DNA of 64,000 nucleotides from Patescibacteria group bacterium (GTDB lineage: Bacteria > Patescibacteriota > Patescibacteriia > 2-01-FULL-39-33), in NCBI GenBank assembly GCA_041649575.1, contig JBAZMW010000001.1, positions 154,711 to 218,710 on the forward strand, in the 5' to 3' direction. The notes under the pieces were generated by a model. It searched no databases. It worked only from the letters and a program-made list of their open reading frames with translations, and was not told the DNA's origin. This document shows positions 1 to 56,229 of the stretch, in pieces. Numbering within the stretch: position 1 is the stretch's first letter; every line of letters starts with the position of its first letter. The position numbers were made by a program, and so were the translations under genes.

Positions 1-2004
1 CGTGAAGCTGGAGTTGGTGGCTCCGCTTATTGCCACGCCGTCCTTCTTCCACTGATACGAGAGCGGCGTCGTGCCCGAGGCCACAACCGTGAACGTAACC
101 AGCGATCCAATACTGGCCGTCTGTGATACCGGTTGCGTGGTGATCGTCGGGGCGACCGCTGTCGATTCGATTGTCAGTGTAGCCACATTGGACGTTGCTG
201 TTCCAGCGGCGTTTTTCACGACACAGCGATAGGCGCCTTCGTTGATCGCACCTGCCGACAGAATAGTGAGCGCGGAGCTCTTCACACCTATCGAAGCGCT
301 GTTCTCTGCGATGTCAACGCCGTTCATCTGCCATTGGTATGACAGCGGCGCTGTGCCCGTAGCCGTGACACTGAAGGTGGCCGACGCACCCAGGTCCACA
401 GTAAGCGAGTCTGGCTGTTTGGTGATCGTCGGGGCGACGGCTGTCGACGCTAGCGTCAGCGTTGCCACGTTCGACGTTGCTGTTCCAGCGGCGTTCTTCA
501 CGATACAGCGGTAGGCGCCAGCATTCACTGTGCCAACTGACAAGATTGTAAGAGTCGGACTCTTTATTCCCGTAGACGCGCTGTTCTCGGGAATGTCCAC
601 TCCGTTGTCTTGCCATTGGTATGACAGTGGCGCTGTGCCGGTGGCCGTGACACTGAAGATCGCCTGTTCGCCGACGTTTACCGTCAGTGAATCCGGCTGT
701 TTGGTGATCGCCGGGCTGATGGCTTCTCCTGCGGCCATGGCCACGTCGATTTTGTAGTAGCCGAGTCCTTGCCCGCTGGAGCCGGTCTCCTCGTGGAGTT
801 CGGTTCCGCCACTCACGCCGATGCCTTGCACTGTGCCGTTCTCGGCGGCATCGACCCGCCAGAGTTTGACCCAGTAGAAATGGTCGGAGTTCGGGTGTTT
901 GGCTGCGAGTCGTAGCTCGATCTGTTCGGCGCCGGCCATGTTCTGTTGCCAGACACCTTTGAGATTGATCACGGCCGGCGTACCATACTCCCAGTCGGGT
1001 GGTGGTACTGGCAGGATGATGCCGCCAGTATCGTTCGGGTACGCGCAAACCATCGCGCAGAGTCCGCTCGGAGACTGGTCATCGGGCCATCCGATGAAGC
1101 AGTTCCTCAGATCCCAGTGGTGTACATCGCAGTACACCGAGAGTTCGTCGCTGGTGTTGACGACGTTCAAGGTGACAATCGCGCTGTCGTCTTGCCAGGG
1201 GATTTCGCCCTCTCCTTCGCCTTCGCCTTCTCCTTCTCCGGCGTGATGGTTGGGATGGTCGTCCGGATTCAGTGGGTCGGTACCGGCATTGATTTCTTCG
1301 CGGTCCGTGTAGCCGTCTCCATCCGTGTCGGATCCGTACTGACCATACGGCAGGGTACCATAGAAGCATTCCTGCCAGTTGGGTACGCCATCGCTGTCCG
1401 GATCGCCTAGGGACCCGTTTTCGCCCGCCGGATCGTGCGGATCCAGCGAGTTTAGTGACTCCCAGAAATTGGGCATGCCGTCGCCGTCGGTATCGTCCAG
1501 TTCCGGAGCTTGCCGCCGGATGAAGATCGTGATCACAGAGTCGTGTCCGTTTAGTTTAACGGATAGGTCGACTCTGATCGACTTCGCCGCCGGGCTTGGT
1601 GGTACCGTTACCTCCCACTGCGTGCCGTCTCCTTCGATGTGGGGCGGGTCACTGGGAACACCAAATGGTTTACCCACCTCATTGAGATAGAGTCCATCGG
1701 TGATGCCACTGGCTTTGCCGCAGTCAAGCGGGAAGTCGACCCACTGGCCTTGCATTTCGGGCAGGGAAATCTCATACGAAACCGTCCCGCCCCTGGCGCA
1801 GTCGAAGTGGGCGCCGTCGATCTTGATCTTGGCCCCGTGTGAAATAACCACTCCAGGGTTGGCAACCTCGACAATTCCGATTTGCTGTCCGGTCTCGCCG
1901 AAGGTCGTCACCAGGATCGACATCTCTCTTTTTTCGGGGCATCCTACGAACAGAAGCCCCATGGCCAACGTAACTGCCACGCACATACTCACTCTCGTCT
2001 TCAT
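1..2004 (-). CDS. Secreted/lipoprotein-like surface protein (partial; C-terminus runs off the left edge). N-terminal domain has DxDxDG TSP3-like Ca-binding repeats, followed by at least three tandem Ig-like (I-set type) domains.
   Basis: I translated the reverse complement by hand from ATG 2004..2002 with no stops to position 1. It reads MKTRVSMCVAVTLAMGLLFVGC (signal peptide), then DTDGDGMPNFW / DPDSDGVPNW / DTDGDGYTD repeats and a GEGEGEGE run. Three ~90-aa repeats (VAPTITKQPDSLTV...TGTAPLSYQWQ.NGVDI...AYRC.VKNAAGTATS) show up in the DNA as ~270-bp tandem repeats. RBS AAAGGAGGcaacATG. About 60% GC. The provided ORF track omits it because no stop falls in the window. Confidence 0.75.
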   Translation of the reverse strand, partial: MKTRVSMCVAVTLAMGLLFVGCPEKREMSILVTTFGETGQQIGIVEVANPGVVISHGAKIKIDGAHFDCARGGTVSYEISLPEMQGQWVDFPLDCGKASGITDGLYLNEVGKPFGVPSDPPHIEGDGTQWEVTVPPSPAAKSIRVDLSVKLNGHDSVITIFIRRQAPELDDTDGDGMPNFWESLNSLDPHDPAGENGSLGDPDSDGVPNWQECFYGTLPYGQYGSDTDGDGYTDREEINAGTDPLNPDDHPNHHAGEGEGEGEGEGEIPWQDDSAIVTLNVVNTSDELSVYCDVHHWDLRNCFIGWPDDQSPSGLCAMVCAYPNDTGGIILPVPPPDWEYGTPAVINLKGVWQQNMAGAEQIELRLAAKHPNSDHFYWVKLWRVDAAENGTVQGIGVSGGTELHEETGSSGQGLGYYKIDVAMAAGEAISPAITKQPDSLTVNVGEQAIFSVTATGTAPLSYQWQDNGVDIPENSASTGIKSPTLTILSVGTVNAGAYRCIVKNAAGTATSNVATLTLASTAVAPTITKQPDSLTVDLGASATFSVTATGTAPLSYQWQMNGVDIAENSASIGVKSSALTILSAGAINEGAYRCVVKNAAGTATSNVATLTIESTAVAPTITTQPVSQTASIGSLVTFTVVASGTTPLSYQWKKDGVAISGATNSSFT

Positions 2005-2097
2005 GTTGCCTCCTTTGCCCTTGAGGGCTGTCTGTGTTGGTCGCCCTCGGGGCAACCGTCTTCACTATGTGACACTCCATTACAACACTCTTACTTG

Positions 2098-2118
2098 CAA
2101 ACGAACAACGCGGTTGTT
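2098..2118. promoter_or_regulatory. Perfect 9-bp inverted repeat (ACGAACAAC-gcg-GTTGTTCGT) upstream of the Ig-like gene; possible operator
   Basis: Palindrome read directly, about 95 bp upstream of the minus-strand start at 2004. Confidence 0.3.
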
Positions 2119-2264
2119 CGTTTTCCTTCTTTGTTTCAAAGGACTGCCGACCACGAGTTCCATGGTCGCTTAAACTGGCCTAAGTCAAAAGAAAGACCGA
2201 CCAAGTTTAATATATTATTTTAGCAAGATTATATTTTTTTGTCAAGATCTAAAAAATTTTTTAA

Positions 2265-2318: not shown

Positions 2319-3596
2319 TTATTTAGCCTGAACTTTACCGTCACTTTTTTCGAATTCATCTCTGGATAAAGCGGTGGTAATTGAGTAAGGAGTGACAATA
2401 TCAATCAGCTCGCTGGTAAAATCATCAGAAGCTGCCAAAGAAATGTTTTCTAAAAGGGAAGCCGGCTGGCCGATTTGTTCTTCAGTGGGAATAATTTCTA
2501 TTTCAAAAGCGGCCCCGACGCTGGGTAAAAAATTCGATGGCGCATAGACCTTGTCTATATTCCAGTTAATCTTTTTATTCGCTGGGTCATAAATGATAGC
2601 CGAACCGTTGGCAGCACTGAAGCGATTAGTCCAGGAGACGTTAGTTGGCAGTTGGGCGCTGATAGTAAGGTTATTCAAGTCGTTGTATTTATTTTCTAGG
2701 TTCAGAAAAATCCAATACCTGGTTGGCTGGCCAACTTGCGGTGGCAGTGGGCCAAAACCAAGCTGATCACTCTCCTCGGTATAATAGCGGGCAAAAGCGA
2801 CTACTTTACTTTCGGTGCTTATCCTCTGGTTCAATGGTTGACCGGTGCTAAAAATAGGGGACGAATTTCTTTCATTATTTCGATAAAATGCTTCGACATG
2901 ACTGCTAAGAACGAAATTCTTATCGTGAGCAGAGCTCTGCGGCAGTGACTTTTTGGTTTTGATGGAGAATTTAATTTCGCCAGTTTGTCCCGGATCCACC
3001 GAGGCCAGTTGCGGCAGCTGTTCTTTATTCCAGGTAATGACGCTTTCGCCGTCAATCATTCTTTCGTCAAAGATGGCTTTTAGTCGCAGGTCTTTCAAAA
3101 TAAAATTTTCTCGATTTTCATATTTAAGCACATAGGAATAAAATTGCCCCAGGTCGATATTTTTTTCGGATGAAACCAGGCTTAGGATTAAGTTGGTTTT
3201 GGCCGCCGGGACTGTTTCAGTGGTAGACGCTTCTTGATAATTGCCATGAGAAATAAAGCTGTTAGAAAAATCATTTCTTGTTTTCGGTGAGGACAGTAAG
3301 AGTAAAAGATTGAAAACAATAAGAAAGATAATAGTTATAGCCAGCAGCAAATCCACAATCAGGTGCCAGTAGCCATATTTGTTCTTTTGCGGACTGTAGT
3401 GCTTGTGCCAGCGCTTTCTGGCGGGAGAGATAAAAACATTAAGCGTGCCAATAATGACGTTGCCGCTTTTTTTGACTTTTAACTGATCGGGATAAATAGT
3501 GACGGCCGTCTGATCGTCCGATTCTCTGGGTTTGGCCTCGATGATCTCGGCTTTTGTTTCATCGGGAAGTTCTATCAGGGAAGTTTGATCCGGCAT
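2319..3596 (-). CDS. Hypothetical single-pass membrane protein (425 aa), last gene of the envelope operon
   Basis: ORF with a hydrophobic helix (HLIVDLLLAITIIFLIVFNLLLLL); no recognisable catalytic motif. Confidence 0.5.
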   Translation of the reverse strand: MPDQTSLIELPDETKAEIIEAKPRESDDQTAVTIYPDQLKVKKSGNVIIGTLNVFISPARKRWHKHYSPQKNKYGYWHLIVDLLLAITIIFLIVFNLLLLLSSPKTRNDFSNSFISHGNYQEASTTETVPAAKTNLILSLVSSEKNIDLGQFYSYVLKYENRENFILKDLRLKAIFDERMIDGESVITWNKEQLPQLASVDPGQTGEIKFSIKTKKSLPQSSAHDKNFVLSSHVEAFYRNNERNSSPIFSTGQPLNQRISTESKVVAFARYYTEESDQLGFGPLPPQVGQPTRYWIFLNLENKYNDLNNLTISAQLPTNVSWTNRFSAANGSAIIYDPANKKINWNIDKVYAPSNFLPSVGAAFEIEIIPTEEQIGQPASLLENISLAASDDFTSELIDIVTPYSITTALSRDEFEKSDGKVQAK

Positions 3597-10850: not shown

Positions 10851-11049
10851 CGCTTTTCTTTTCTAGAAAAGAAAAGCGCACGCAAAAGAAAAGTCGCGAG
10901 CTAACATGAAAAATTTTGCGTTTCAGACAAAATTCTAACAAAATTTTTAAATTCCCCGCTCAGGCGCTGACGCGCTGAGCGGGTCAAACAGTAAAAATTT
11001 AGTAACGAATTTTGCCTTCACTTTTTTCAAAATTTTTCATAGGCTCGCA
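10851..11049. mobile_element. MITE-like dispersed repeat, copy 1. A 28-bp perfect palindrome CGCTTTTCTTTTCTAGAAAAGAAAAGCG (10851-10878) is followed by a ~155-bp element with imperfect terminal inverted repeats (GCGAGCTAACATGAAAAATTTT ... AAAATTTTTCATAGGCTCGC).
   Basis: About 75-80% identical to 61235..61413. Copy 1 carries an extra internal hairpin (CCGCTCAGGCGCTGACGCGCTGAGCGG). Confidence 0.55.
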
Positions 11050-11074: not shown

Positions 11075-12205
11075 ATGAAGTATTTAGAATTAAGGAATAG
11101 GATTGAAAATTTTACCAAGTATCCAAAAACTCAAAAGATCTCTCGCTCCCTCATTGTTAACAAGGGATTTCATGGTAATTTTAATATTAGTTTTGGCGAA
11201 GCGCCGTTCCTTGAAAAGTTTGGAAATTATTTGGACAATTCAGAAGCGTATAATTTTTCCACCATTCAGCAAGTTATAAGGGTAAATGATTTTAGAGACG
11301 ACTTGGACTCAACACATCTCTTACTGTTTGATATGGCAGATGTTTCTGGTTTTATTGGTGGAAAAAATGTTTCAGATGATGAAAGAAAAAATATTGCCAG
11401 TTTTACCATCAGAAAAACATTTGAGTTTTTAATTAATGAGTTGAAACTAAAGCCGGAACGTTTCAAGATTTCGTATTTGACCGGAGGAAATGTTGAAGTA
11501 TTGACAGCTGGAAAATATAAATTTGATAAATATGTTGAAGGCGACTCTTTTATAAAAACTGCAAAAGAATTTGGTATTTGTGATGAACAATTTATCCCCG
11601 ACCAGACAAGAACAACTCTGCTAGCATTGAATTTTCAGCCACCAGTTTGTTGGGGTTATCGCAATGAAATTTTATATCAAACTGACAGCCCGAGCGAATT
11701 ATTAGATATTGCTTCTATCGAAAACTTACTTTGGCGGCCGGTGTTTAAAAATGGAATCATAGCCGATCTGGCTAGATGGGAAAATTTTTGGTCTTTTCAG
11801 GTTGTGGGTGTAGAAAGGTTATTAATGCTGATAAATAATTCGGACAAAGTTTATGCGGCTGATCATATTATGCCACTTATCACTAAATTTTCAGAAGTGA
11901 CAAATAGTTTGGATATCCATGTTTGCCGTATTACAATGGAGCTGCTACGAGTTTTCCATAGAATTGTAGCTGATATGGAAGGTTTTTCAATATTGTCCAG
12001 CTCGAGAAAAGAAAAGCTCATACCATATCGTAGAAAATTTTTACAAAATTGTGAAAAATTAGGCTTTGACTATAAAACAAATTTAAAAGAATTATTGACT
12101 CTTAACGGCAAATTGCAGCCATGTTATCCTGAACTCCTTTCGGGCACTGAAGCTAAAACTAATAAAATAATAGAATGGTTGAGAAAAGGAAAGATATATA
12201 CTTAA
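11075..12205 (+). CDS. Hypothetical protein (377 aa) inserted between mraY and murD
   Basis: Host-like AT-rich ORF. I placed the start at ATG 11075 because the track's upstream extension overlaps the repeat element. No recognisable motif. Confidence 0.45.
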   Translation: MKYLELRNRIENFTKYPKTQKISRSLIVNKGFHGNFNISFGEAPFLEKFGNYLDNSEAYNFSTIQQVIRVNDFRDDLDSTHLLLFDMADVSGFIGGKNVSDDERKNIASFTIRKTFEFLINELKLKPERFKISYLTGGNVEVLTAGKYKFDKYVEGDSFIKTAKEFGICDEQFIPDQTRTTLLALNFQPPVCWGYRNEILYQTDSPSELLDIASIENLLWRPVFKNGIIADLARWENFWSFQVVGVERLLMLINNSDKVYAADHIMPLITKFSEVTNSLDIHVCRITMELLRVFHRIVADMEGFSILSSSRKEKLIPYRRKFLQNCEKLGFDYKTNLKELLTLNGKLQPCYPELLSGTEAKTNKIIEWLRKGKIYT

Positions 12206-13611
12206 AAAATAAAAAAGTGACAGTCATGGGGCTGGGTTTATATGAAAATGGTAGCGGAATTTCGGCTACCCGTTTTTTGGTGGAGCAGGGCGCTCGGGTG
12301 ACAGTGACCGATTTAAAGACCAGGGAACAACTGACTGATCAGGTAAAGCGACTGGGGTCGTTGGCTAGGAAAATAAAATTTGTTTTAGGTGAACATCGAG
12401 AGGAGGATTTTAAAAATATTGATTTACTTGTAAAAAATCCAGGCGTGCCCAACATTTCAAAATATTTGCGAATCGCTCGAGAAAATAAGATTCCCATTGA
12501 GACGGATATCTCTTTGTTTTTTAAGCTGGTGCCGCGAGAAAGAATTATTGGCATCACCGGCACGCGCGGTAAAAGCACCACCACCAGTTTGATCTATGAA
12601 ATAGTAAAACTGGCCGACAAAAACGCGGTTTTGGGCGGCAATATCACCAAGTCGCCGCTGGCGCAGATGATGGAAGTAAAAAAGGGAGGCATGGTAGTGC
12701 TGGAGTTGTCTTCTTGGATGCTGGAAAGCTTAGAACCGCACAAAATGAGTCCGCAGCTGGCCATTTTTACCAATATTTACCCAGATCATTTAAATACTTA
12801 CAAAAATATTGCCGAGTACGCGGCAGCCAAAGAAAATATTTTCCAGTGGCAGAACAAAGATGATTTAGTGGTGCTAAACCGCGATAATAGCTGGACCAGA
12901 AAAATGGGCGCTAAAGTTCCAGGCAAAAGGTTTTGGTTTTCCAAAAAATATTTTGCGGCAGAAAACGGAGTTTATTTGAAAGGAAAAGATGTCTATTTTC
13001 GGCTCGCTGGCGAGGAAATAAAAGTCTTAAAAAAAGATGACATTCAAATTCTCGGTGAACATAATTTGGAAAATGTTTTGGCGGCGGTAGCCGCCGCTAT
13101 GGCCTGGGGAATCAGGCCGGAAACTGTCAGGCGAGGTGTAAAAAGCTTCAAAGGCATTAGCGATCGGCTGGAATTTTTGAGAGAAATAAAAGGGGTAAAA
13201 TATTATAATGATACCACCTCGACCACGCCAGAAGCGACGATGGCGGCCCTAAGGGCCTTAAGTTTAAAACCAAAAAGTAAAAGCTTAAAAGAAAAAAATA
13301 TTATTTTGATAGGTGGAGGGTCGGATAAAGGGTTGAATTTTAAAGAATTGGCCAGGGAGATAAGAGATAGAGTAAAAAATTTAGTTTTATTAAGGGGAAG
13401 TGGCAGTGAAAGACTGGCTAAAGAATTTTTAGCTTTAAGTTTTAAGTTTTCAGTTGTTGGCTCTATGGCTGATGCGGTTGGTTTGGCTAAAAGTTTTGCC
13501 AAGAGGGGAGATATTGTTTTGCTTTCTCCCGCCTGCGCTTCTTTTGGCATGTTTAATAATGAGCTTGATCGTGGCGCGCAGTTTAGGATGATAGTTAGGA
13601 AGTTAAAGTGA
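12175..13611 (+). CDS. murD: UDP-N-acetylmuramoylalanine--D-glutamate ligase MurD
   Basis: KKVTVMGLGL N-terminus, P-loop GITGTRGKSTTTSLIYEI, Mur ligase C-terminal region. Confidence 0.85.
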   Translation: MVEKRKDIYLKNKKVTVMGLGLYENGSGISATRFLVEQGARVTVTDLKTREQLTDQVKRLGSLARKIKFVLGEHREEDFKNIDLLVKNPGVPNISKYLRIARENKIPIETDISLFFKLVPRERIIGITGTRGKSTTTSLIYEIVKLADKNAVLGGNITKSPLAQMMEVKKGGMVVLELSSWMLESLEPHKMSPQLAIFTNIYPDHLNTYKNIAEYAAAKENIFQWQNKDDLVVLNRDNSWTRKMGAKVPGKRFWFSKKYFAAENGVYLKGKDVYFRLAGEEIKVLKKDDIQILGEHNLENVLAAVAAAMAWGIRPETVRRGVKSFKGISDRLEFLREIKGVKYYNDTTSTTPEATMAALRALSLKPKSKSLKEKNIILIGGGSDKGLNFKELAREIRDRVKNLVLLRGSGSERLAKEFLALSFKFSVVGSMADAVGLAKSFAKRGDIVLLSPACASFGMFNNELDRGAQFRMIVRKLK

Positions 13612-13629
13612 TGGCTTCGGCGAGGCAGG

Positions 13630-13712
13630 CCCGCCTGCGCCAGTTTTGGCATGTTCAATAATGAGTTCGACCGAGGCGCGCAGTTTAGGATGATAATTGG
13701 TAAATTAAAATA
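13630..13712 (+). repeat. Tandem GC-shifted duplicate of the murD 3' end, encoding ACASFGMFNNEFDRGAQFRMIIGKLK* (murD itself ends ACASFGMFNNELDRGAQFRMIVRKLK*)
   Basis: Direct comparison of 13530-13611 with 13630-13712: the same peptide with mostly synonymous, GC-increasing substitutions. The spurious minus-strand ORF 13203..13736 shows the same duplication. Confidence 0.7.
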
Positions 13713-13736
13713 AAAAAAATACGGCGGCGAGGACAC

Positions 13737-14100
13737 TTGCGTATCACTCGCCGCGCTCTAGGTCACGGACTGCGTTCACGATTGACCCCACGGACATGGG
13801 ATCGTGCTCCTGGGGGGCCGTCCCACAAAGCACGGCGGTTACCGGGGGCCGCGCGTCGCGTCCGCGACTGCACAGAGGCCTTTATGGAAGGCCCGGCGTC
13901 CGCGGTCTACGTCCGCAGGACGTGTCGCCGGTGCCCGTCGATGGCCGCGCCCGTCGCGCTTGTGCTCGGAAACAGATTCGAATTCGATATGGACAATGCG
14001 AGATGGGTGCCTTTTCGGTGCTGAATGTGCATAGTGCGTGTTCCTCCTTGTTTGTTCCATTGAACCTCTTCCAGATTGAAACTATGTAAGGCCATATTAG
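13737..14100. other. GC-rich (about 65%) structured ~360-bp islet of unknown nature between murD and ftsW; candidate ncRNA or foreign remnant. Best ORF candidate is a 41-aa minus-strand ORF (14032..13907) with SD AAGGAGG.
   Basis: Many stable hairpins (GCGGCGAG..CTCGCCGC; GGCCTTtatggAAGGCC; GTCGCGtccGCGAC). Every longer ORF is Arg-rich, i.e. non-coding-like. Confidence 0.3.
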
Positions 14101-14224
14101 CATATTAGTAAATTTTTGTCAATAATTAATTAAATAAAAAAATAAAAAATATTAATTTTTTGTTTAAATTTAGACAAAAATAATTGTTCGAAAATTATTA
14201 AAATAAATAGCCAAAGATCAAATC

Positions 14225-15370
14225 ATGAAAATAAAGGTCAGGGAATTATTAAGAGAAATCATAAAAGGCAAAAAAGATCAGCCGCCGGATTGGTATTTGG
14301 TGGGGCTGATTGTCTTTTTGACGGTTTTTGGCCTGATTATGCTGTCATCGGCCGGAGCGGCCGTTGGCTGGCAGAAATTCGGCGACAGTTACTGGCACGT
14401 TAAACACCAAATTCTTTTCGGCTTATTGCCGGGACTGGTTTTGTTTTTTATTTTTTCGCGGCTGGATTATCACCGACTGAAAAGCCTGGCCTCGCCCATG
14501 CTTTTTATTTCTTTGATTTTATTAGTTTTGGTGTTTGTGCCTGGCATTGGCGCCAGCTGGGGCACCTCAAAAAGCTGGATCAATTTTTTTGGTTTTTCGC
14601 TCCAGCCGTCAGAAATCGTCAAGCTCACTTATTTGATTTATCTGGTTTCTTGGCTGGCGGCCAAGGAAGAAAGACATTTAAAAAACTTGCAGCAGGGTTT
14701 TTTGCCGTTTTTGTTTGTTTTGGGTATAATCACCATTCTGATGGTTTTGCAACCGGACACGGGCACCATGCTGATCATTGTTCTGACTTCGCTGATCGTT
14801 TATTTTGTGGCGGGCGGCAGTTTTTGGCACCTGTCGTGGCTGTCGGCGGTAGGTTTGGGCGGGCTGGCTTTGATTATCAAGATTTCTCCTTACCGCGCGG
14901 CGCGGCTGACGACCTTTTTGCATCCCGAGCTCGACCCGCAAGGCATCGGTTATCATATTAATCAGGCGCTCTTGGCGGTTGGCTCGGGTGGCTGGCTGGG
15001 CCGTGGGTTTGGCCATTCGCGGCAAAAGTTCGCTTACTTGCCGGAGGTGGCCGGCGATTCTGTTTTTGCCATTTTGGCGGAAGAACTGGGATTTTTCATC
15101 TCGGCGGCCGTGGTGGCGCTTTTCGTTTTTCTGGCTTTGAGAGTTTTGAAAATGGCCAAAAATTGCCGTGATCCGTTTGGCTCGCTCTTGGCGGTGGGAA
15201 TTATCGTCTGGTTTGTCATTCAGGCTTTCTTGAACATAGGAGCGATTATCGGCGTTCTGCCGCTGACCGGCGTGCCTTTGCCTTTTATTTCTTATGGCGG
15301 CACTTCGCTGATGATTTGCTTGGCCGCTTCGGGAATTTTGGTTAATATTTCAAGGCACAATAATAATTAA
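14225..15370 (+). CDS. ftsW: SEDS-family peptidoglycan glycosyltransferase FtsW/RodA
   Basis: 10-TM protein with conserved SEDS C-terminus (PLTGVPLPFISYGGTS); dcw context. Confidence 0.85.
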   Translation: MKIKVRELLREIIKGKKDQPPDWYLVGLIVFLTVFGLIMLSSAGAAVGWQKFGDSYWHVKHQILFGLLPGLVLFFIFSRLDYHRLKSLASPMLFISLILLVLVFVPGIGASWGTSKSWINFFGFSLQPSEIVKLTYLIYLVSWLAAKEERHLKNLQQGFLPFLFVLGIITILMVLQPDTGTMLIIVLTSLIVYFVAGGSFWHLSWLSAVGLGGLALIIKISPYRAARLTTFLHPELDPQGIGYHINQALLAVGSGGWLGRGFGHSRQKFAYLPEVAGDSVFAILAEELGFFISAAVVALFVFLALRVLKMAKNCRDPFGSLLAVGIIVWFVIQAFLNIGAIIGVLPLTGVPLPFISYGGTSLMICLAASGILVNISRHNNN

Positions 15371-15383
15371 TCATTAACATAAA

Positions 15384-16439
15384 ATGAAAATTTTATTAGT
15401 CGGCGGCGGAACAATGGGTTCGGTGAGCCCGCTTATCGCCGTCTACCAAAAAATCAAACAGCAACAGCCGGAGACGGAATTCTTGTTTGTCGGCACCAAA
15501 ACCGGGCCGGAGCGGGCGGCCGTAGAGAGCTACAAGATTCCCTTTCAGGCGATTTCTTCCGGCAAGCTTAGGCGCTATTTCAGCTGGCAGAATTTCAGCG
15601 ATCCTTTCAGGATCCTGGCCGGACTGATCAGGAGCTTTTTTCTGATTTTGAGGTTTCGGCCCAATGCCATTATGATCGCCGGCAGTTTTGTGGGCGTGCC
15701 GGTAGCCTACAATGCCTGGCTGCTAAGGGTTCCGGTGCTTATCCACCAGCAGGATATTGTTGCCGGCTTGGCCAACAAACTGATGGGCAACACGGCCCAA
15801 AAAATAACCGTTTCTTTTGACATTTCGTTTAAAGATTTTTTCCCGAAAAAAACAGTTTTGACCGGCAATCCGGTGCGAGCCGAATTTTACGACTGTCAGC
15901 CGGCCAAGAGTCGCAAGTTTTTTGGTCTCAAAGAAGATTTGCCGGTGGTGTTGATTTTTGGCGGTGGTACCGGCTCGCAAAAAATCAACGAAACAGTCAA
16001 AAAATCTTTGCCGGAGCTGTTGCAGTTTTGTCAGGTTATCCATGTCACCGGTCGCGGCAAAACAATTAGCGTCAAGGCCGACGATTATCATCAATTTGAA
16101 TTTTTGACCAACGAGTTTACCGACGCCCAGTGTGCGGCCGATATTATTGTTAATCGGGCGGGCATGTCGACTTTGTCGGAATTGGTGATTTTGGCCAAAC
16201 CAACGATTTTGATTCCTTTGCCCGGGCATCAAGAAGACAACGCCAGTTATTTTCAAAAAAATAACGCCGTTATCACCCTCTCGGAAGCGAACTTAAATAA
16301 TGAAATTTTCACCAGCACGATAAAAGAGCTGGTTTTCAACTCGGGGCGAAAAAATAATCTGTCGAGGAATATGGCCAAGATGATGAAAACCAAAGGAGCC
16401 GAGGAAGTGGCGAGATTGCTCTTGGAAATAGCCAAATAA
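15384..16439 (+). CDS. murG: UDP-GlcNAc--undecaprenyl-PP-MurNAc-pentapeptide GlcNAc transferase MurG
   Basis: N-terminal GGGTMGSVSPLIAV and C-terminal GT28 domain; dcw context. Confidence 0.85.
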   Translation: MKILLVGGGTMGSVSPLIAVYQKIKQQQPETEFLFVGTKTGPERAAVESYKIPFQAISSGKLRRYFSWQNFSDPFRILAGLIRSFFLILRFRPNAIMIAGSFVGVPVAYNAWLLRVPVLIHQQDIVAGLANKLMGNTAQKITVSFDISFKDFFPKKTVLTGNPVRAEFYDCQPAKSRKFFGLKEDLPVVLIFGGGTGSQKINETVKKSLPELLQFCQVIHVTGRGKTISVKADDYHQFEFLTNEFTDAQCAADIIVNRAGMSTLSELVILAKPTILIPLPGHQEDNASYFQKNNAVITLSEANLNNEIFTSTIKELVFNSGRKNNLSRNMAKMMKTKGAEEVARLLLEIAK

Positions 16440-16456
16440 TCAAATTGAAATTTATC

Positions 16457-17851
16457 ATGTCCATTTTAGACACGAAGCTGGAAGCAATAAATAAAATATA
16501 TTTTATTGGTATTGGCGGTAGCGGCGTTTCGGCGGCGGCGCGGATTTTGCAAAAGGAGGGAAAAGAAGTCTGGGGCAGCGATATCAGCGGCGGCGAAATC
16601 GTCGAGGAACTGATCGGGGAAGGCATAAAAATTTTCATCGGCCAGAAAAAAGAAAATATTGTTTCGGATATTGACCTGGTTGTCTACAGCGTGGCCGTGC
16701 CTCAAGACAATCCGGAGAGGCAAACGGCGGAGAAACTGGGCCTTTGCCAGATAACTTACCCGCAACTTTTGGGTTTGCTGATGCGGGATAAGTACGGCAT
16801 CGGCGTTTCCGGCACCAATGGCAAAACCACCACCACCGCCATGTTGGCCAAAATTTTTTTGGCGGCGGGCGAAGATCCGACCGTAGTGGTGGGCAGTAAA
16901 GTTGATTTTTTGGCTGGCAACTCGCGAGTGGGCCAAGGAAAATATTTTATCTTTGAAAGCGATGAATATCGGCGGGCTTTCGATAATTATTTCCCCAAAA
17001 TCGCTTTGGTGACTTATATCACCGCAGACCATCTGGACTATTTTAAAGATTTGGAAGAAATCAAAGCGGCCTTTGGAGATTATTTAAACCGCCTGCCTCG
17101 AGCTGGCTTGGCGGTGATAAACGGCGATGATGATAATTCTCTGGCAGCGGCCAAAAACTGCCAGGCCAAAATAGTCTCTTTTGGCCTGGACAGGCCTGCC
17201 AATTATTTGGCCCAGGAAATAAAAACGGCCGGCGGCAAACAGACTTTTGAGGTGAGAGAGAGGGGCGGTGAGCCGGAGAAAATAACCATTAATTTGCCGG
17301 CCAAATATAATATTTATAATGCCCTGGGCGCCATAGCGGTGGCCAGGATTTGCGGTTTGAGCTGGCCGGTTATCAAGGGCGCTTTGGCCGATTTTACCGG
17401 CACTTGGCGGCGTTGGCAAAAAATTGGTAAAATAGGGAAGACAGAGATTATTGTCGATTATGCCCATACGCCGGACGCGGTGGAAAAAACCATCGCCGCG
17501 GCCAAAGGATATTATGCCGGCAAAAAAGTATTAATTGTGTTTCAGCCGCACCAATACAGCCGCACCAAGGAATTATTTTTGCCTTTCAGTAAAAGTTTTT
17601 GGCAAGCCGACTGGGCGATTATCACTGATATTTTCTATGTCAAAGGAAGGGAGAAGCCGGAGGATTTTGCTGTCAGTTCACAAAAGCTGGCTGAGGCGAT
17701 AATAACCAATGGCAGCCGCGCCGAATATGGCGGCGACTTGGCGCAAACAGAGGAATTGATAAGAAATAAAGCTGGCGATTTTGACGCGGTTCTGATGTTG
17801 GGGGCCGGCAATATTTACGAAGCGGCCAAGAGACTGTCAGAAAACAACTAG
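16457..17851 (+). CDS. murC: UDP-N-acetylmuramate--L-alanine ligase MurC
   Basis: IYFIGIGGSGVSAAARIL and GVSGTNGKTTTTAML P-loop. The track start 16445 is a TTG; I prefer ATG 16457. Confidence 0.85.
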   Translation: MSILDTKLEAINKIYFIGIGGSGVSAAARILQKEGKEVWGSDISGGEIVEELIGEGIKIFIGQKKENIVSDIDLVVYSVAVPQDNPERQTAEKLGLCQITYPQLLGLLMRDKYGIGVSGTNGKTTTTAMLAKIFLAAGEDPTVVVGSKVDFLAGNSRVGQGKYFIFESDEYRRAFDNYFPKIALVTYITADHLDYFKDLEEIKAAFGDYLNRLPRAGLAVINGDDDNSLAAAKNCQAKIVSFGLDRPANYLAQEIKTAGGKQTFEVRERGGEPEKITINLPAKYNIYNALGAIAVARICGLSWPVIKGALADFTGTWRRWQKIGKIGKTEIIVDYAHTPDAVEKTIAAAKGYYAGKKVLIVFQPHQYSRTKELFLPFSKSFWQADWAIITDIFYVKGREKPEDFAVSSQKLAEAIITNGSRAEYGGDLAQTEELIRNKAGDFDAVLMLGAGNIYEAAKRLSENN

Positions 17852-42265: not shown

Positions 42266-42277
42266 ATAAAATTTTTA

Positions 42278-42325
42278 GACAAATTTAATACCGGAAAGTC
42301 GCTGGCGCAACCTTCCAGTATAGTG
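42278..42325. repeat. Direct repeat copy 1 (TTTAGACAAATTTAATACCGGARRGTCGCTKGCGCAACCYYCCRGTAT), hairpin-containing, immediately 3' of the minus-strand 122-aa gene
   Basis: Differs from 42782..42829 at 5 positions. Contains inverted TACCGG..CCGGTA arms and a TTGCGCAA palindrome. Confidence 0.7.
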
Positions 42326-42348: not shown

Positions 42349-42717
42349 TCACTCTACTTGAGCATTGATTTCTGCTGTAATGCCGGAGTACAACTTGTGG
42401 CGTTCCGGCCCCACGATAAATGAGAGAGCGACAAACCCCAGTACAGTTTTATTATGTTTGTATCGAATGTTCCGGCAAAGCCTTTTCATGATGCCATGTA
42501 AGTACACTGGGTGAGAGCGAATCAAGGCACGGCGAGTGCGTGGGTCCTGCCATTCTTTCAACACCTCCCATGCTTTTTGTTCGTCGTATTTTTGACTTTC
42601 TTGTAATGCCTGGCGTAATTCGTCCGCATAGTCGCGGCGAAAGTTGTCGATCTCTGCGATCGACAAGACTATTGGCACCCCATCATCCATTTCCCCGTTT
42701 CCACTTTCCGTTCCCAT
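42349..42717 (-). CDS. GC-rich island gene 1, 122-aa hypothetical protein
   Basis: SD AGGAGGGatcgtcATG; about 57% GC; no recognisable motif. Confidence 0.55.
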   Translation of the reverse strand: MGTESGNGEMDDGVPIVLSIAEIDNFRRDYADELRQALQESQKYDEQKAWEVLKEWQDPRTRRALIRSHPVYLHGIMKRLCRNIRYKHNKTVLGFVALSFIVGPERHKLYSGITAEINAQVE

Positions 42718-42781: not shown

Positions 42782-42829
42782 ATATTTAGACAAATTTAAT
42801 ACCGGAGGGTCGCTTGCGCAACCTCCCGG
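42782..42829. repeat. Direct repeat copy 2, immediately 3' of the minus-strand 475-aa gene
   Basis: See copy 1. Preceded on the gene side by a second small hairpin ATCGCCgtcaGGCGAT. Confidence 0.7.
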
Positions 42830-42858
42830 TATGTTGATGTACGATCGCCTGACGGCGA

Positions 42859-44286
42859 TTAGTTGAGAGCGACTGCCTCCTGCCTGCCCTCGGTGCTCAG
42901 GACCACATGGTCCTCCTCGAGCCTTAGCACGGCGATGGCGGCGCTGCCCGCGCTCTCATAGGCGTGGTTCTCGTAGATCAGCCGCGGCTCCTGGCCCGGC
43001 ACCATGACATAGAGCTCATAGCGTAGTTGCGGGTCGGCGATGCGGTGATCGATCTGCTCCTCGGCCACGAAGACCGCCAGGCCCAGTCGCGCGCTTATGA
43101 TCCTGTGCCGTACCGACGGCGTGCGGTAGGACACTTGGCCGGGAGTCCCCATCGGCATCTGTATGACTACGCCGTACTTCTGATCCCCGTAGTCTTGGTA
43201 CATCTTTGGCTTCAGGCGCCAAGATGCCATCTTTTGCGCCAGGATCTGGGCGATCGCCGCGTCCACCTCGCCCTCAAAGGCGGCCTGCTCGGTCTCGTTG
43301 AGCTTGGGCGGACTCGGAGTCGCTTCAGTCGGCTCGAAGACAAACTCGGCGATGCGGTTGCCGTACTCCTCGTTGACGAGTTCGACGGTGATTTTCACCT
43401 GGCCGCCCCTTTCGTCAATTTGGATTTGCCCCAGGTCGTTGATGCACAAATCGTGCCGGTCGGCGCTACTGCTGTAGCGGTTGCGCCACTGCCATTCTTG
43501 CATCTGGTCTCGGCCGTGGTGGTAGATCACCACTTGATCGAAGTAGCCGATGCCGCCACTGCCACCCCACTCGCTTCGGGCTACCAGAAACACGGCCGTG
43601 TCGGGATCGAGCACCCTGACCTTCCCGATACTGCACCGCTCCATCTTCATCAACTCCTCAATGAACAACCGGAGCCGTGCCGACACTTCTTGCCCGCCGA
43701 GTACCTCGGCCAATGCCTCCTCATGACTCAACCGCGAGTCATCCTCCAGCAATGCTTTGACGCTGGCGGCGGCTTCGGCCAGCTCTTCCCGCTTCTGCTG
43801 GATTTGGCTGGCAAACTCTTCGCCACCGAGAAGAGCCAGCGCTTGGTGTGCGTCGGAGTAGGATTGCCGCCCGATCTCGTAAGTTTCCCGCGGGAAGTTG
43901 TCGGGGGGGAGCTCTTGTACCAAACTCCTGATGCCCAACTCATCGGTCAGGGCCAGGAACTTTTCCGTGAGCTTTCTTTCACAGCAACCACAACCATTCA
44001 TGGTCGGGTCGATTGCACTGAAGGCCTCGGCGATCGCCAGCCGGACCAGGGGATCGGGCTGGGCATTGATGGCCTTGACGATCCGCCCCCGTTCCTCGGC
44101 CGGCAATTCGCGGAGGCGTTGCACATACTTCCCGCCGCGCTGGCCATCGGCCATGGTCACAGGGATGCCGGTGACCTGCTGGGCAACTTGTAGGCAGACA
44201 GACAATTCCAACTGCCGCAGTTGTCGGCCAATCTCTTCCTCCACTTTCCGCGCTTCTTTCAGCGCTCTTTCTCTTTCCTTGTTCAT
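42859..44286 (-). CDS. GC-rich island gene 2, 475-aa hypothetical protein (no recognisable domain)
   Basis: SD GGAGGAGacaacaATG at 44286. The track's longer 509-aa version overlaps the upstream gene. Coiled-coil-like N-terminus (MNKERERALKEARKVEEEIGRQLRQL), a CGCC cluster, C-terminal beta-rich half. The antisense 388-aa ORF is Arg/Gly-rich and rejected. Confidence 0.6.
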   Translation of the reverse strand: MNKERERALKEARKVEEEIGRQLRQLELSVCLQVAQQVTGIPVTMADGQRGGKYVQRLRELPAEERGRIVKAINAQPDPLVRLAIAEAFSAIDPTMNGCGCCERKLTEKFLALTDELGIRSLVQELPPDNFPRETYEIGRQSYSDAHQALALLGGEEFASQIQQKREELAEAAASVKALLEDDSRLSHEEALAEVLGGQEVSARLRLFIEELMKMERCSIGKVRVLDPDTAVFLVARSEWGGSGGIGYFDQVVIYHHGRDQMQEWQWRNRYSSSADRHDLCINDLGQIQIDERGGQVKITVELVNEEYGNRIAEFVFEPTEATPSPPKLNETEQAAFEGEVDAAIAQILAQKMASWRLKPKMYQDYGDQKYGVVIQMPMGTPGQVSYRTPSVRHRIISARLGLAVFVAEEQIDHRIADPQLRYELYVMVPGQEPRLIYENHAYESAGSAAIAVLRLEEDHVVLSTEGRQEAVALN

Positions 44287-44308
44287 TGTTGTCTCCTCCG
44301 TTCGTCGC

Positions 44309-44606
44309 CTAGTGCGCGAACGCGTTGAGAAACTTTGCCAGCTCCCTCGGCTCTTTCTTGGAATGCCGAAGGAATCTGACGCACGCACCCACTAACTCTG
44401 CTCCGAAATTCTCTTCCCGGCAGGCGATAGCGTACCACCTGGCTGCCAGCGCCTTTTTGCGTTTGCCGGTCCTGGCTAGGACCAGATTATACGCCTTGGA
44501 AGGACTGGTAGCAGACTCGGTGAGGTTGAGCAGTTCGGGTACGGCCCAAACCGCCTTGGCGCGTGCCAATAACTCGATCAGACGCTTGACGTCTTTTGGT
44601 GTCATG
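44309..44606 (-). CDS. GC-rich island gene 3, 98-aa basic helical protein (possible small regulator/partner)
   Basis: SD AGGAAAGGAGcaagccATG; 20-bp gap to gene 2; a probable operon with it. Confidence 0.5.
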
Positions 44607-44773
44607 GCTTGCTCCTTTCCTCTGTAAGGTGCTATCAAGCTGATTGCCAGCTTAACTAATAATTATATCATATTATAACATAATTGTCAATGGTATTTTG
44701 TTATTTTATTTAAATTTAGCCAAAAATAATAAGTATTTTTGCCAAAAGTAGCAATTTGAATTAAAATATAGTT

Positions 44774-52401: not shown

Positions 52402-55400
52402 ATGAAAAAAGGCAAACTAATATTTGTTGGTTTGGCTTTATTTTTTTGTTTGATTGGTATTTATAAGCTGGTTTTGGCGCAAACCAGCTGTTATTTCAAG
52501 GGCCCTGAGACTTCGCCGGATCTTTTGCGTCTAAGCAGCCTTGATATTAGCGGTAACGGCAATTTGCTAGTTGGGGATACGGTGACGGTCGGTTTTAATT
52601 TGCAAAATTATGGCCAAAGCGATATCAAGCTTGGTTCAAAGGGAATCTTTGCCGCTGGATTCGATCCCAGCAGTTCCGACGCCTCGTTTGGCTTTTCTTA
52701 CGCCAATGCCATCTTAAAGCCGGGGCAAACAGTTTCTTTCAAGGCTTCAAGAGTTTTGGATAAAGAGGGGGTTTGGACAATCTGGCCGTCATATCAGATT
52801 GTTAGCGGCAAGACGGAAAAACTAGGGCCAGACAATTGGCGCGCCTGTCCTTTAAGCGTAGCGGCGGCTCAAAAAGACTCCGACCAGGATGGCGTTTATG
52901 ACGAAAGCGATAATTGTCCCAGCGCTTATAATCCCAATCAGGAAGATATTGATGGCGACAAAATTGGCGATGCCTGCGATGGTTGCGATGACAGGGATTG
53001 GGATCAGGATAAGATTAAGAACTGCTCCGACAAATGTCCCGATCAGCCAGAGATTTTTAATCAATATCAAGATGAAGACGGCTGCCCCGACGAAAAGCCG
53101 CAGGAAACCAAAGACAGCGATCAAGATGGAGTTGATGACAGCAAAGATAATTGTCCGAACGCTTATAATCCCGATCAAAAAGACGGTAACAGTAATAACC
53201 AGGGCGACGCTTGCGAACAAAGAACAGACGGACAAGATTTACCGGAAGAGAACAAAGAATCGCCGGTTTCACTAGTTACCGGTTTGCCAGCCGAGACTGC
53301 CGGCAATGTTAATTTAAATATCAATGCTTCGCGAGTCCCGACAGAAGAAATAAGCGTCCCTTGCGACCTTTCGGGAACGATTTGGAATTTTAAATATTTG
53401 TCAAAAACCTTAAAGGTGAGGATTTGCGAAGCCGAAAGAATCGGTGGCGGCTGTCTGCCAACCCCGCCGTTTACCTGCACTGGTGGCGCTGTCAGTTGTA
53501 AAGAAGGTGGCGCCAGTTGGCTAGAAAATGTCAGTCGGGTTTGGACCGGAGAGGAAGCCTACCGTAATCCCGGGCCGCTGTCTTACCGGGCCAGGGTCGG
53601 TTGTGGCAGTAGTTATTTGATTACGCCGAGCTACGAACCATTCGAACAAGAATGCCAGTGGCAGGGACGTTTTAGCCCAACCAGAAGCAATTTTGTCAAT
53701 ATGAGCGGCACCAGCCAGACGGGTTATGATTTTAATTTCACTGCCAACGAACTCACGCCACCCAGTGTTAACATGATAAGTGACGATGTCAGGCGGCCGG
53801 CTACCTTTAAGGGCGAAGGTAATTTTAAGGTTTTGGTTAACGCTTTTGACGCCAGCGGTATCAAAAACATAAAGATAACCGGCAGCTATACGGTGAAGTA
53901 TTTTTCAGCCGATGAAACCGGGCCGTTGGAAACTGGCCGCGGTGATGAGACGGTGACAGTGGACAGAAGTTGCAGCATTTCTCCCTGCGATGTGTTTTTG
54001 CCTTATTATGCTGGAGGCAAACAAATCAGCTTTGATTTGCATATTAGCGCCTGCGACAACAACGGCAATAAAATTGAAACCACTTATAACCATGTTTTTC
54101 CCGATAATTCGGGCGATCTTGTTGTCGCCGCCACCGATCCGGTGCAAGTGATTTATGACGCGCCTTTGGTCAAAAATAAGAACACGGCTTTTCGGATTAA
54201 GGTCAATTCAACTTTTCCTTATCCGACAGAAGCCAAGTTTCGTCTTGATTTGCCGCCGGATAAATGGAGCATGACCAGCCGTAGCGGCAGTTATCTTTTG
54301 GGGTTTACTCCAGGTTGGCGCTATAAAGATCTGTGGGGGCCGATAAAAATTCCGGCCAACGCCAGGAATCATGAGATCATGTTGCCGATAATTGCCGATT
54401 GGCAAAAAGAACTCGATTATGACAGTACCGCTGACAGGGAAGGCAAGGTGTTGCGCGGACGCGAGGTTAGCGGCGTTTGGGGACTGGATGTCCGATTATT
54501 GCCCATTCCCGCGGCTGACAGAGTAAATTATTCCGTCAGTATTGATCCGGAAAACCAAATTTCCGAAACTAACGAGAGAAATAATATTATTAATTCCGTT
54601 GAATATTCGACAGCCAAAACTAAGGCTTGGCGGTTTTTGTTCATTCCTTATCGTGATGGTTCTGGCGGCGGTATGTGCGCGCCAACCGAGGGCATGCGTC
54701 AAGGTGGAGCCAAAAGACAACTGGAATATGTGCTGGCCACGTTCCCAATCGCTGAAAACAAAATTGAATATGGTTTTTCTTATACCAATTTTTCCCTTGG
54801 TTGCGGCGGCGATCCTGACGGCCAGTGCGAATATGCGCGGGCTTTTAATGTCAGCCGCGGTGAATTTTTGAGGTGGATGGCGCGTTTGGCTCTGGACGAG
54901 GGTTATGATTTCGGCGTGGCTATTGGCTGCGGCGGCGGTGGCGGCGCCGGCGGATCAGATAAGGCCGTGTTTATCGGGGCAGACGGAAATGAAGCGCTGC
55001 TGGCGCATGAGTTTAATCATGTGGTATCGCCGGTCAGCGACGTTTATTCTCGGGATTGCTATAGCAGCTGGAATGAAAGCTACTGTGAGAAGCCGGATGG
55101 CCAACGTTTCTACTGCTGCTGGCAGGATTACAACGACGAGAAAGACCGCCGTGAAAGCAATGGAGTCGATCCAATGGAAGGCTGCACGGTTGACTGCGGC
55201 CAAAACGAGACTTCGGGTTGTGATGGAGCTTGCTGCCACGCCCGCTGTCAGCCGGGTTGCGCTGCGGCCGGTGGTGTTAATTATTACGCACCGGATTTAC
55301 GGATTGATCTGCCGGCCACTAACGGTTTTTGGGCCAATGAATGGCAGAAAAAAGAAAGCAAGCAATATTTTATGGACGGTCCAAGAGGTGATAACTGGAT

Positions 55401-56229
55401 GACGGCCCGAAGCGTGCGGGACAGCGGTTTCAGCTTTTGTCCCAGCCCGGATATCAATGTTGATTATGATGGTTACCTGAATTTATTAAACAACCCTCGT
55501 TTCAAGAGCGCTAGCGACCCCCAGGGCTTATTAGTCAGCGGTACGATTAATAAAAATGGCACAGTTAAATTTGACCCGTTTGTCTATTTGCCAGAAACCT
55601 TTCTTGATTTAGAACCAAATAGTGGGGGTGACTACCAGTTTGTTTTACTCGATGAAAACAAAAAGGAATTAAGCAAGTCGGGTTTTGATGTTTATTTTTA
55701 TCAGTATGATCCCGGTGGCGGGCCGCTGGAGGAGACTTCTTTTGCCTACCGGATTGAGTGGAAGGAAGGAACTAGCTTGATAGAATTACGCAACAAAGCC
55801 GGTCAGGTTTTGGCTAGCCGGCAGGTATCAAAGAACAAGCCGGAAATCGAAGTGGTTTATCCCAACGGCGGTGAGGTTTTTAAGATTGGCAAAAAAATAG
55901 AGCTTAATTGGCAAGCGAGCGATGCCGACGGCGACGAATTGTTTTATTCTTTGGCCGTAAGCTCGGATGGCGGCAAAAGTTGGCTACCCGTGGACATGGA
56001 TTTGAAAACGACAAGCTATGAACTTAATACCGCCGCTTTAAGGCCGGGCGATTATCTACTTAAAGTCAAGGCCAGTGACGGTGTAAATACATCACAGGAT
56101 GTTTCTGACAAGACTTTTGAAGTTAAGGCTGTAAAAAAAATCAAAAATTTGTATTTTTTGGCTTGGGGCGTGGCGATGCTGATTTTATTGGGGATTTTAT
56201 GGAAGAAAAAGTTTGTCCGAAAGAAATAG
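52402..56229 (+). CDS. Giant surface protein (1275 aa) with signal peptide, TSP3-type Ca-binding repeats, a CARDB-like region, a putative zinc-metalloprotease HExxH site (HEFNH), Cys-rich modules and a C-terminal TM anchor
   Basis: DSDQDGVYDESDNCPSAYNPNQEDIDGDKIGDACD repeats; ALLAHEFNHVV; C-terminal LAWGVAMLILLGILWKKK. Confidence 0.7.
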   Translation: MKKGKLIFVGLALFFCLIGIYKLVLAQTSCYFKGPETSPDLLRLSSLDISGNGNLLVGDTVTVGFNLQNYGQSDIKLGSKGIFAAGFDPSSSDASFGFSYANAILKPGQTVSFKASRVLDKEGVWTIWPSYQIVSGKTEKLGPDNWRACPLSVAAAQKDSDQDGVYDESDNCPSAYNPNQEDIDGDKIGDACDGCDDRDWDQDKIKNCSDKCPDQPEIFNQYQDEDGCPDEKPQETKDSDQDGVDDSKDNCPNAYNPDQKDGNSNNQGDACEQRTDGQDLPEENKESPVSLVTGLPAETAGNVNLNINASRVPTEEISVPCDLSGTIWNFKYLSKTLKVRICEAERIGGGCLPTPPFTCTGGAVSCKEGGASWLENVSRVWTGEEAYRNPGPLSYRARVGCGSSYLITPSYEPFEQECQWQGRFSPTRSNFVNMSGTSQTGYDFNFTANELTPPSVNMISDDVRRPATFKGEGNFKVLVNAFDASGIKNIKITGSYTVKYFSADETGPLETGRGDETVTVDRSCSISPCDVFLPYYAGGKQISFDLHISACDNNGNKIETTYNHVFPDNSGDLVVAATDPVQVIYDAPLVKNKNTAFRIKVNSTFPYPTEAKFRLDLPPDKWSMTSRSGSYLLGFTPGWRYKDLWGPIKIPANARNHEIMLPIIADWQKELDYDSTADREGKVLRGREVSGVWGLDVRLLPIPAADRVNYSVSIDPENQISETNERNNIINSVEYSTAKTKAWRFLFIPYRDGSGGGMCAPTEGMRQGGAKRQLEYVLATFPIAENKIEYGFSYTNFSLGCGGDPDGQCEYARAFNVSRGEFLRWMARLALDEGYDFGVAIGCGGGGGAGGSDKAVFIGADGNEALLAHEFNHVVSPVSDVYSRDCYSSWNESYCEKPDGQRFYCCWQDYNDEKDRRESNGVDPMEGCTVDCGQNETSGCDGACCHARCQPGCAAAGGVNYYAPDLRIDLPATNGFWANEWQKKESKQYFMDGPRGDNWMTARSVRDSGFSFCPSPDINVDYDGYLNLLNNPRFKSASDPQGLLVSGTINKNGTVKFDPFVYLPETFLDLEPNSGGDYQFVLLDENKKELSKSGFDVYFYQYDPGGGPLEETSFAYRIEWKEGTSLIELRNKAGQVLASRQVSKNKPEIEVVYPNGGEVFKIGKKIELNWQASDADGDELFYSLAVSSDGGKSWLPVDMDLKTTSYELNTAALRPGDYLLKVKASDGVNTSQDVSDKTFEVKAVKKIKNLYFLAWGVAMLILLGILWKKKFVRKK

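Follow-up and report, generated by a model that had tools for sequence, protein, structure and literature searches.

An islet of three foreign-looking surface-protein genes in a Patescibacteria genome, opening with a gene for a putative calcium-binding lipoprotein with Ig-like domains

What is encoded at one end of a bacterial DNA stretch whose composition departs from that of the rest, and how did it come to lie there? The question is raised by 64,000 nucleotides from the genome of a Patescibacteria group bacterium (GenBank assembly GCA_041649575.1, contig JBAZMW010000001.1, positions 154,711 to 218,710), a stretch that is called the window throughout and in which positions 1–2000 have a guanine-plus-cytosine (GC) content of 0.59/0.58 (58–59%), compared with an average of about 0.44 in the rest of the 64 kb. 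An initial annotation, made from the letters alone, had described a foreign-looking, GC-rich end with a single long gene hidden from the list of open reading frames (ORFs), and this has been borne out. The minus strand carries a frame of 668 codons from 2004 to 1 with neither a stop nor a frameshift, which is missing from the ORF list because it crosses the window edge. When the sequence is extended leftwards on longer contigs, the gene, here termed g1, is completed at 831 amino acids (aa) (positions 11593–14088 of L001, a 126-kb contig that is 100% identical to the window across 13.6 kb), its last 163 codons and stop lying outside the left window edge. Window positions 1–2245 hold its promoter, its leader and the first 80% of its coding sequence, and the gene is monocistronic. 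With a probability of roughly 60%, g1 is a gene for an 831-aa cell-surface lipoprotein of an uncultured bacterium of the Patescibacteria (candidate phyla radiation, CPR) and the first of three foreign surface-protein genes that form an islet of 5.7 kb.

The domain order of the g1 product is a signal peptide ending at Cys22, a domain D1 (aa 23–165), three thrombospondin type 3 (TSP3) loops (aa 166–252), an acidic (GE)6 linker, a domain D2 (aa 268–430), three Ig domains (aa 431 to about 705) and a C-terminal domain (aa 709–831), all encoded on the minus strand. The N-terminus reads MKTRVSMCVAVTLAMGLLFVGC and comprises a signal peptide with a lipobox (1939–2004, MKTR...TLAMGLLFVG|C), in which TLAMGLLFVGC fits the PROSITE PS51257-type pattern and a K/R lies within the first four residues, as in bacterial lipoproteins. 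The lipoprotein-like signal peptide of the initial annotation is thereby matched, and the protein would probably be lipidated at Cys22. The three bacterial TSP3 repeats (1249–1509) score 47.9 bits with Pfam TSP3_bac (PF18884; cut-off 25) and contain the motifs DTDGDG, DPDSDG and DTDGDG at aa 171, 201 and 226, in agreement with the three DxDxDG loops read earlier; they are predicted to hold calcium. The GEGEGE linker that had also been noted is a (GE)6 run, GEGEGEGEGEGE, at aa 256–267 (1204–1242; Tandem Repeats Finder period 6/12 at 1204–1239). Among the residues of the mature protein, G, S, T, A and V are frequent.

In the Ig region Pfam I-set reaches 117 bits in one scan and 127.5 bits in another, above a cut-off of 23.7, and Ig_3 reaches 115 bits, its cut-off being 30, in each case over three stretches. 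Ig1 (aa 431–524, 433–714) is placed by Pfam and by matches in the PDB, Ig2 (aa 525–618, 151–432) by the tandem repeat and its alignment with Ig1, and the first half of Ig3 (aa 619–668 of 619 to about 705) occupies 1–150, where it is cut by the window edge; the complete gene holds exactly three Ig domains, followed by the C-terminal domain. The presence of three tandem Ig-like domains had been recognised before, with a period of about 270 bp; the period is in fact 282 bp (94 aa), and the coordinates then given (90–360, 360–630 and 630–760) have to be replaced by those above, positions 715–760 belonging to a different, non-Ig domain. Each domain has the core Trp (YQW) and the F-strand YxC motif with a single cysteine (C500, C594, C681), and the canonical B-strand/F-strand cysteine pair is absent from all three. 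Ig-like domains of bacteria and phages often show this single-cysteine pattern, which taken alone is no reason to deny Ig membership.

The repeats had been taken for near-identical copies and therefore for a recent expansion, which the comparison of the domains does not support. Identity between Ig1 and Ig2 is 76% at the nucleotide level and 80% at the amino-acid level, and that of Ig3 with either is 45–49% in amino acids. Between Ig1 and Ig2 the synonymous divergence (dS) is about 1.2 and the nonsynonymous divergence (dN) about 0.125, with a dN/dS of about 0.1, which indicates that the duplication is old and has been kept by purifying selection. The longest exact run common to two Ig copies is 23 nt, so that the earlier concern about repeat collapse in the assembly falls away.

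The remaining domains are orphans. D2 (715–1203), predicted as all-beta and containing four cysteines, had a single marginal partial match among 1.84 billion cluster representatives and nothing better than E 0.2 in the PDB. In a query joining Ig3 to the C-terminus, all homologues end at the Ig domain and none covers the 123-aa C-terminal domain, which lies beyond the window edge. D1 (1510–1938, predicted all-beta) had no homologue when searched alone, and searches of GTDB genomes, JGI metagenomes, IMG/VR, PLSDB plasmids and GenBank phages yielded TSP3-repeat matches at most. AlphaFold models of aa 1–430 (aligned with the archaeal protein described below) and of D2 alone had mean confidence values (predicted local distance difference test, pLDDT) of 30 and 37, and although an all-beta fold is predicted, the models are unusable. 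Two candidate partial relatives, on L003 and L026, were rejected as unrelated TSP3-bearing proteins, and no template/variable repeat pair of the diversity-generating retroelement type was found for the C-terminal domains.

The sole exception to this isolation is the homology of D1 to the same position of P0001, an unannotated 710-aa protein encoded on an archaeal metagenomic contig (L015, with proteasome, exosome, aCPSF1 and L37ae genes). Signal peptide/Cys, D1, three TSP3 loops and GE linker are collinear in the two proteins (37% identity over 250 aa, E 1e-41), with the likeness strongest at TSP3 (about 60%) and lower in D1 (28%, pairwise E 1e-6). Past the linker the two differ, P0001 carrying PASTA and Flg_new_2 in place of the D2, Ig and C-terminal domains of g1; it also belongs to another domain of life, and its GC content at third codon positions (GC3) fits that of its own neighbours. 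Since P0001 shares this N-terminal part and then carries other domains, the part has the look of an anchor module that can be reused and to which different distal domains can be attached. Beside P0001, L015 also encodes (666–2333) a 555-aa cysteine-rich repeat protein with CxxDSxCGxxxW...YC units and no Pfam match, which is probably another surface protein.

Comparison with known systems places g1 among surface proteins of several kinds. With bacterial I-set/Ig_3 proteins (PF07679/PF13927; YQW...YxC) it shares three tandem domains far above the Pfam cut-offs, and its Ig domains are 45–67% identical to those of many metagenomic and metagenome-assembled genome (MAG) proteins (Undibacterium, Rhodoferax, Holophagaceae), phage Ig domains being among those resembled at this level; it differs from them in the flanking D1, D2 and C-terminus, which have no relatives there, and in having one cysteine per domain. 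In the material cited, Leptospira LigA and LigB are lipoproteins built of tandem Ig-like repeats and able to bind both Ca2+ and the matrix of the host (PMC7821625, PMC2892007). A lipobox followed by tandem Ig-like repeats, a calcium-binding capacity (predicted in g1) and a surface-adhesin logic are common to both, whereas the Lig proteins have 12–13 Big_2 repeats that bind calcium inside the Ig-like domains, in contrast to the I-set domains and TSP3 loops of g1, and no sequence relationship exists between them. The TSP3 loops of Myxococcus CglD and MtsD and of a pilus-like system protein of the Amuc_1099 family, which are of lipoprotein type, match aa 164–252 of g1, and the g1 gene adjoins a type IV pilus cluster; only TSP3 matches, however, at 19.9, 24.1 and 20.4 bits in NCBIfam, where the curated cut-offs are 400, 800 and 50, and g1 is not a member of these families. 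In working terms its product is a Lig-like or CglD-like surface lipoprotein, and a family member of I-set and TSP3_bac only.

From this architecture a function can be proposed. The protein would be exported and lipid-anchored via Cys22, and its three TSP3 loops would hold Ca2+, while the flexible acidic GE linker, D2 and the three Ig domains may form a stalk that presents the orphan C-terminal domain away from the cell. Its likely role would be attachment to a partner cell or matrix, or the building of a surface coat. The adhesin suggested by the initial annotation fits the Ig and TSP3 content of the protein, and it is from these domains that the role itself is deduced.

How the gene is controlled is a separate question, raised by a palindrome ahead of its start codon. 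The sole promoter-like candidate upstream of g1 is a host-type sigma-70 promoter at 2245–2217 on the minus strand (TTGACA-17-TAAAAT, 11/12 matches, with TG ahead of the -10 box), just downstream of which the AT-rich sequence switches to GC-rich. Transcription is predicted to start near 2210 and would give a 5' leader of about 205 nt (minus strand, 2005–2210, 49% GC) with a 5'-terminal hairpin and at least four more hairpins, and a Shine-Dalgarno sequence, AGGAGG (2009–2014, minus strand), is read directly 4 nt ahead of the ATG. The leader has a minimum free energy of -74.7 kcal/mol (z -3.82), and none of 200 shuffles folds equally well. Within it lies the perfect inverted repeat AAACGAACAAC-gcg-GTTGTTCGTTT (2099–2123), whose near edge is 95 bp before the ATG, much as had been reported, with arms of 11 bp (2099–2109 and 2113–2123) rather than 9 bp around the 3-nt spacer.

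The initial annotation had taken this palindrome for an operator, that is, a DNA site through which a dimeric repressor would control the surface-protein gene. Such a reading draws on the perfect 11-bp arms with a 3-bp spacer (when the intergenic region was subjected to 3000 dinucleotide shuffles, a perfect inverted repeat this long or longer appeared 12 times, or in 0.4%) and on the position in the 5' non-coding region of g1. The marks of a repressor operator, namely overlap with the promoter, a nearby regulator and recurrence in a regulon, are nevertheless absent. The centre of the palindrome is about 100 nt downstream of the predicted promoter, near +100 of the predicted transcript, and no other site of at least 9/12 lies between palindrome and ATG; no second copy occurs in about 72 kb with 3 mismatches allowed; and no gene for a regulator or transcription factor is found in or beside the islet. 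In addition, the hairpins that g2 and g3, the other two genes of the islet, have at this position differ from it, and each of the three leaders is folded far more stably than its shuffled versions (g2, about 175 nt, z -3.2; g3, about 120 nt, z -3.4), even though they share no sequence beyond the promoters and cannot be aligned. An operator is for these reasons unlikely, and the palindrome would more probably act as an RNA stem-loop in a stabilising 5' leader.

Host leaders behind equally good promoters are 16–43 nt long and unstructured. Long, structured 5' untranslated regions (UTRs) have been reported to confer long half-lives on the mRNAs of surface-layer (S-layer) genes (PMC3666127). S-layer units such as Lactobacillus slpA are monocistronic, with a strong promoter, a long structured 5' UTR, a strong ribosome-binding site and a strong terminator (PMC3666127), and g1 is alike in these sequence signals, on which the likeness is based; it differs in that no S-layer or SLH domain was detected in its product. 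By analogy with these leaders, the palindrome stem-loop and the 5'-terminal hairpin may stabilise the g1 mRNA. The palindrome hairpin has no U-tract in the sense direction, and a terminator-like reading applies to the antisense strand only. A 27-codon upstream ORF running through the palindrome was rejected, having no ribosome-binding site, and an Rfam scan gave no leader match at E<=1, its only two matches being at chance level and within coding sequence.

As to the origin of g1, the gene has to be seen together with its neighbours. The islet consists of three GC-rich secreted-protein genes on the same strand, each monocistronic: g1 (831 aa; lipobox, TSP3, three Ig domains), g2 (381 aa; an LSGC lipobox and a Bact_surface_Ig-like/DUF5011 domain) and g3 (396 aa; a signal peptide of the ordinary kind and a single I-set Ig domain with 47–48% identity to Ig3 of g1). 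It is located between a cell-envelope glycan cluster with glycosyltransferases, Wzy and Wzz on one flank and, on the other, GT4, the type IV pilus genes pilB and pilC, and a GspH-type pseudopilin. For every gene of the trio there is a separate TTGACA-17-TAnAAT promoter (11/12), a Shine-Dalgarno sequence and, after the stop codon, a terminator-like hairpin with a T-run; the hairpin of g2 was flagged by the scan, and the other two were read from the sequence. The short spacers carrying these signals are AT-rich and host-like, with the GC switch 12–16 nt past the -10 box. Between Ig3 of g1 and its counterpart in g3, a stretch of 52 nt (L001 13535–13586 and 16387–16438), encoding YQWKKDG.AISGATNS, is 85% identical, the remainder of these Ig domains being 59% identical, which suggests either gene conversion or strong constraint.

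The coding sequences are clearly foreign at synonymous sites. The GC3 values of g1, g2 and g3 are 0.70, 0.63 and 0.72 (0.69 for the islet), as against 0.503±0.048 (maximum 0.593) in 19 host genes. The relative synonymous codon usage (RSCU) of the islet correlates at 0.31 with that of the host genes; one half of the host set correlates with the other at 0.93, and the islet with a second GC-rich cassette described below at 0.81. The foreign composition that had been noted for this end of the window is confirmed by these figures. It could be argued that the genes are native and owe their high GC to the Gly/Ala/Thr/Pro-rich composition of surface proteins or to high expression. The G, S, T, A and V content of the mature protein, a raised GC content at second codon positions (0.50 vs about 0.35) and the host-like promoters and terminators would fit this explanation, which is quite improbable all the same: GC3 is independent of amino-acid content and exceeds the mean of the host genes by about 4 standard deviations, and the codon-usage correlation with the host is low. 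Neither expression level nor surface-protein composition explains the GC3 shift, because a gene in the ribosomal-protein region beside the L10 leader has an ordinary GC3 of 0.45 and a host TSP_3 surface protein gene (52402–56229) one of 0.49. Acquisition by horizontal transfer is the best reading of the islet, drawn from composition only; the genes would have come from a higher-GC source and then been placed under host-type promoters.

An origin from a phage or another mobile element, of which the islet would be a remnant and its Ig domains examples of the type decorating the heads and tails of phages, is highly improbable. PHROG does give matches to tail, Hoc-like head-decoration and major tail proteins of up to E 1e-43, and the PDB matches of the Ig region (up to E 1e-32) include titin and, among the best, a phage tail protein and an 'Ig-like domain protein'. 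All such matches are confined to the Ig domains (aa 417–714), however; the protein opens with a lipoprotein signal, no other phage gene, integrase or tRNA is nearby, and no relative was found in IMG/VR or GenBank phages. The marks of an Ig-decorated phage structural protein, a match to its structural part and a virion-gene neighbourhood, are absent.

That the GC-rich end arose by chimeric assembly, or by the joining of a contaminant to a low-GC genome at about 2210, is very unlikely indeed, since, despite the abrupt GC step of about 15 points, two joins returning to the same genome would be needed. The junction, which the initial annotation had singled out as possibly chimeric, is identical base for base in three assemblies that differ in length and assembler, a Logan contig of 16.5 kb (L002), the ENA contig of 126 kb (L001) and an NCBI MAG contig of 245 kb. 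The first two were located via the neighbouring 425-aa protein, L002 being 100% identical to the window across 10.4 kb, and the third, from the MAG 'Patescibacteria group bacterium', has the same proteins with accession numbers in gene order. GC content is 0.51–0.61 across L001 from about 11500 to 17000 and then returns to about 0.40, with host composition and host-type genes (GT4, pilB, pilC) resuming after 5.7 kb. AT-rich host-type promoters and terminators lie between the three GC-rich genes, and no shared repeat at the junction could have misled an assembler. The 5.7-kb islet is real.

Several points weigh against the reading of g1 as a horizontally acquired surface lipoprotein with an adhesive role. 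Of the marks of a genomic island, deviation at synonymous sites is present and signatures of mobility are missing: there is no tRNA within 50 kb on the window side, no integrase among the called genes and no clear direct repeat flanking the islet. No related genome or contig, with which a version lacking the islet could be compared, was found in GTDB representatives or JGI metagenomes, and no donor lineage was pinned by the searches. The adhesin role is suggested by domain content alone, and an enzymatic or nutrient-binding role is possible for a protein whose orphan domains have neither relatives nor a usable model. The operator reading would gain ground again if a weak promoter lay closer to the palindrome, and the three assemblies, though made by independent assemblers, may share one sequencing run and are not necessarily independent samples.

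Next to the islet, on the side of the promoter of g1, lies a host gene for the 425-aa protein (2319–3596), whose AT-rich bidirectional intrinsic terminator (2271–2305, L001 11292–11326; inverted repeat I1) consists of a stem of 16 pairs and a T-run after it. The islet is flanked by an imperfect, AT-rich direct repeat of 30 nt (L001 11273–11302 and 17035–17064, 77% identical, AAAT[A/G]ATTTATC...AAACAAAAAAT), its left copy corresponding to window positions 2324–2295; it may be a duplicated target site or a product of chance.

A second GC-rich cassette is present on the minus strand at 42859–44690, with about 60% GC and a GC3 of 0.75. It has a promoter with 12/12 consensus matches (44690–44662), a 53-nt leader opening with a hairpin, and two ORFs of 98 aa (44605–44309) and 475 aa (44286–42859) that had no match in Pfam, PHROG or NCBIfam. 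In codon usage the cassette resembles the islet genes (correlation 0.81) and not the host (0.39). No additional GC-rich cassette was seen in the 10 kb past the right window end. In all four GC-rich transcription units the GC switch occurs 12–16 nt past the -10 box, at a (C/T)TGG(T/C) motif with a predicted 5'-terminal stem-loop (L001 11380–11400, 14203–14225 and 15639–15665; window 44662–44640), a motif picked after seeing the data and in a small sample. Adjoining the second cassette, a 51-nt direct repeat of a bidirectional terminator (42271–42321 and 42782–42832, 88% identical) brackets a small minus-strand gene at about 42350–42716 and looks like a duplicated insertion point.

Other elements of the window deserve mention. 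The host-composition gene at 52402–56229 on the plus strand encodes 1275 aa with eukaryote-type TSP_3 (PF02412), weak PKD/Big_7 matches and a C-terminal membrane anchor, and is annotated by NCBI as a thrombospondin type 3 repeat protein; given its composition, TSP3-type surface proteins are also native to this genome. An intergenic element of 130 nt (10906–11036 and 61288–61402, about 75% identical) stands upstream of two unrelated genes (one starting at 11012, the other uvrB at 61438) and may represent a small RNA or a regulatory element common to both. An 80-nt direct repeat (13528–13607 and 13630–13709, 85% identical, 102-nt spacing) lies at and just past the 3' end of murD.

Taken alone, g1 is a domain-shuffled surface lipoprotein of familiar type. 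The codon-usage match of 0.81 between islet and second cassette, the junction architecture common to them and the archaeal homologue are the grounds for a wider and rather doubtful proposal, namely that the ultra-small episymbiont repeatedly captures surface genes from one higher-GC partner and refits them with a host promoter and a stabilising leader beside its pilus genes. That partner may be its host organism or a co-resident archaeon. If this were true, the module of signal peptide/Cys, D1, TSP3 and GE linker would be an inter-domain, exchangeable surface-anchor cassette. To go by the sources cited (PMC9894109, PMC11623550), little is known, type IV pili apart, of the means by which Patescibacteria recognise partner cells and hold on to them. 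The islet is a specific case in which a reduced genome has probably acquired genes, and its trio of genes of foreign composition, situated beside pilB and pilC and predicted to be built for strong expression, are reasonable candidate surface-interaction factors.

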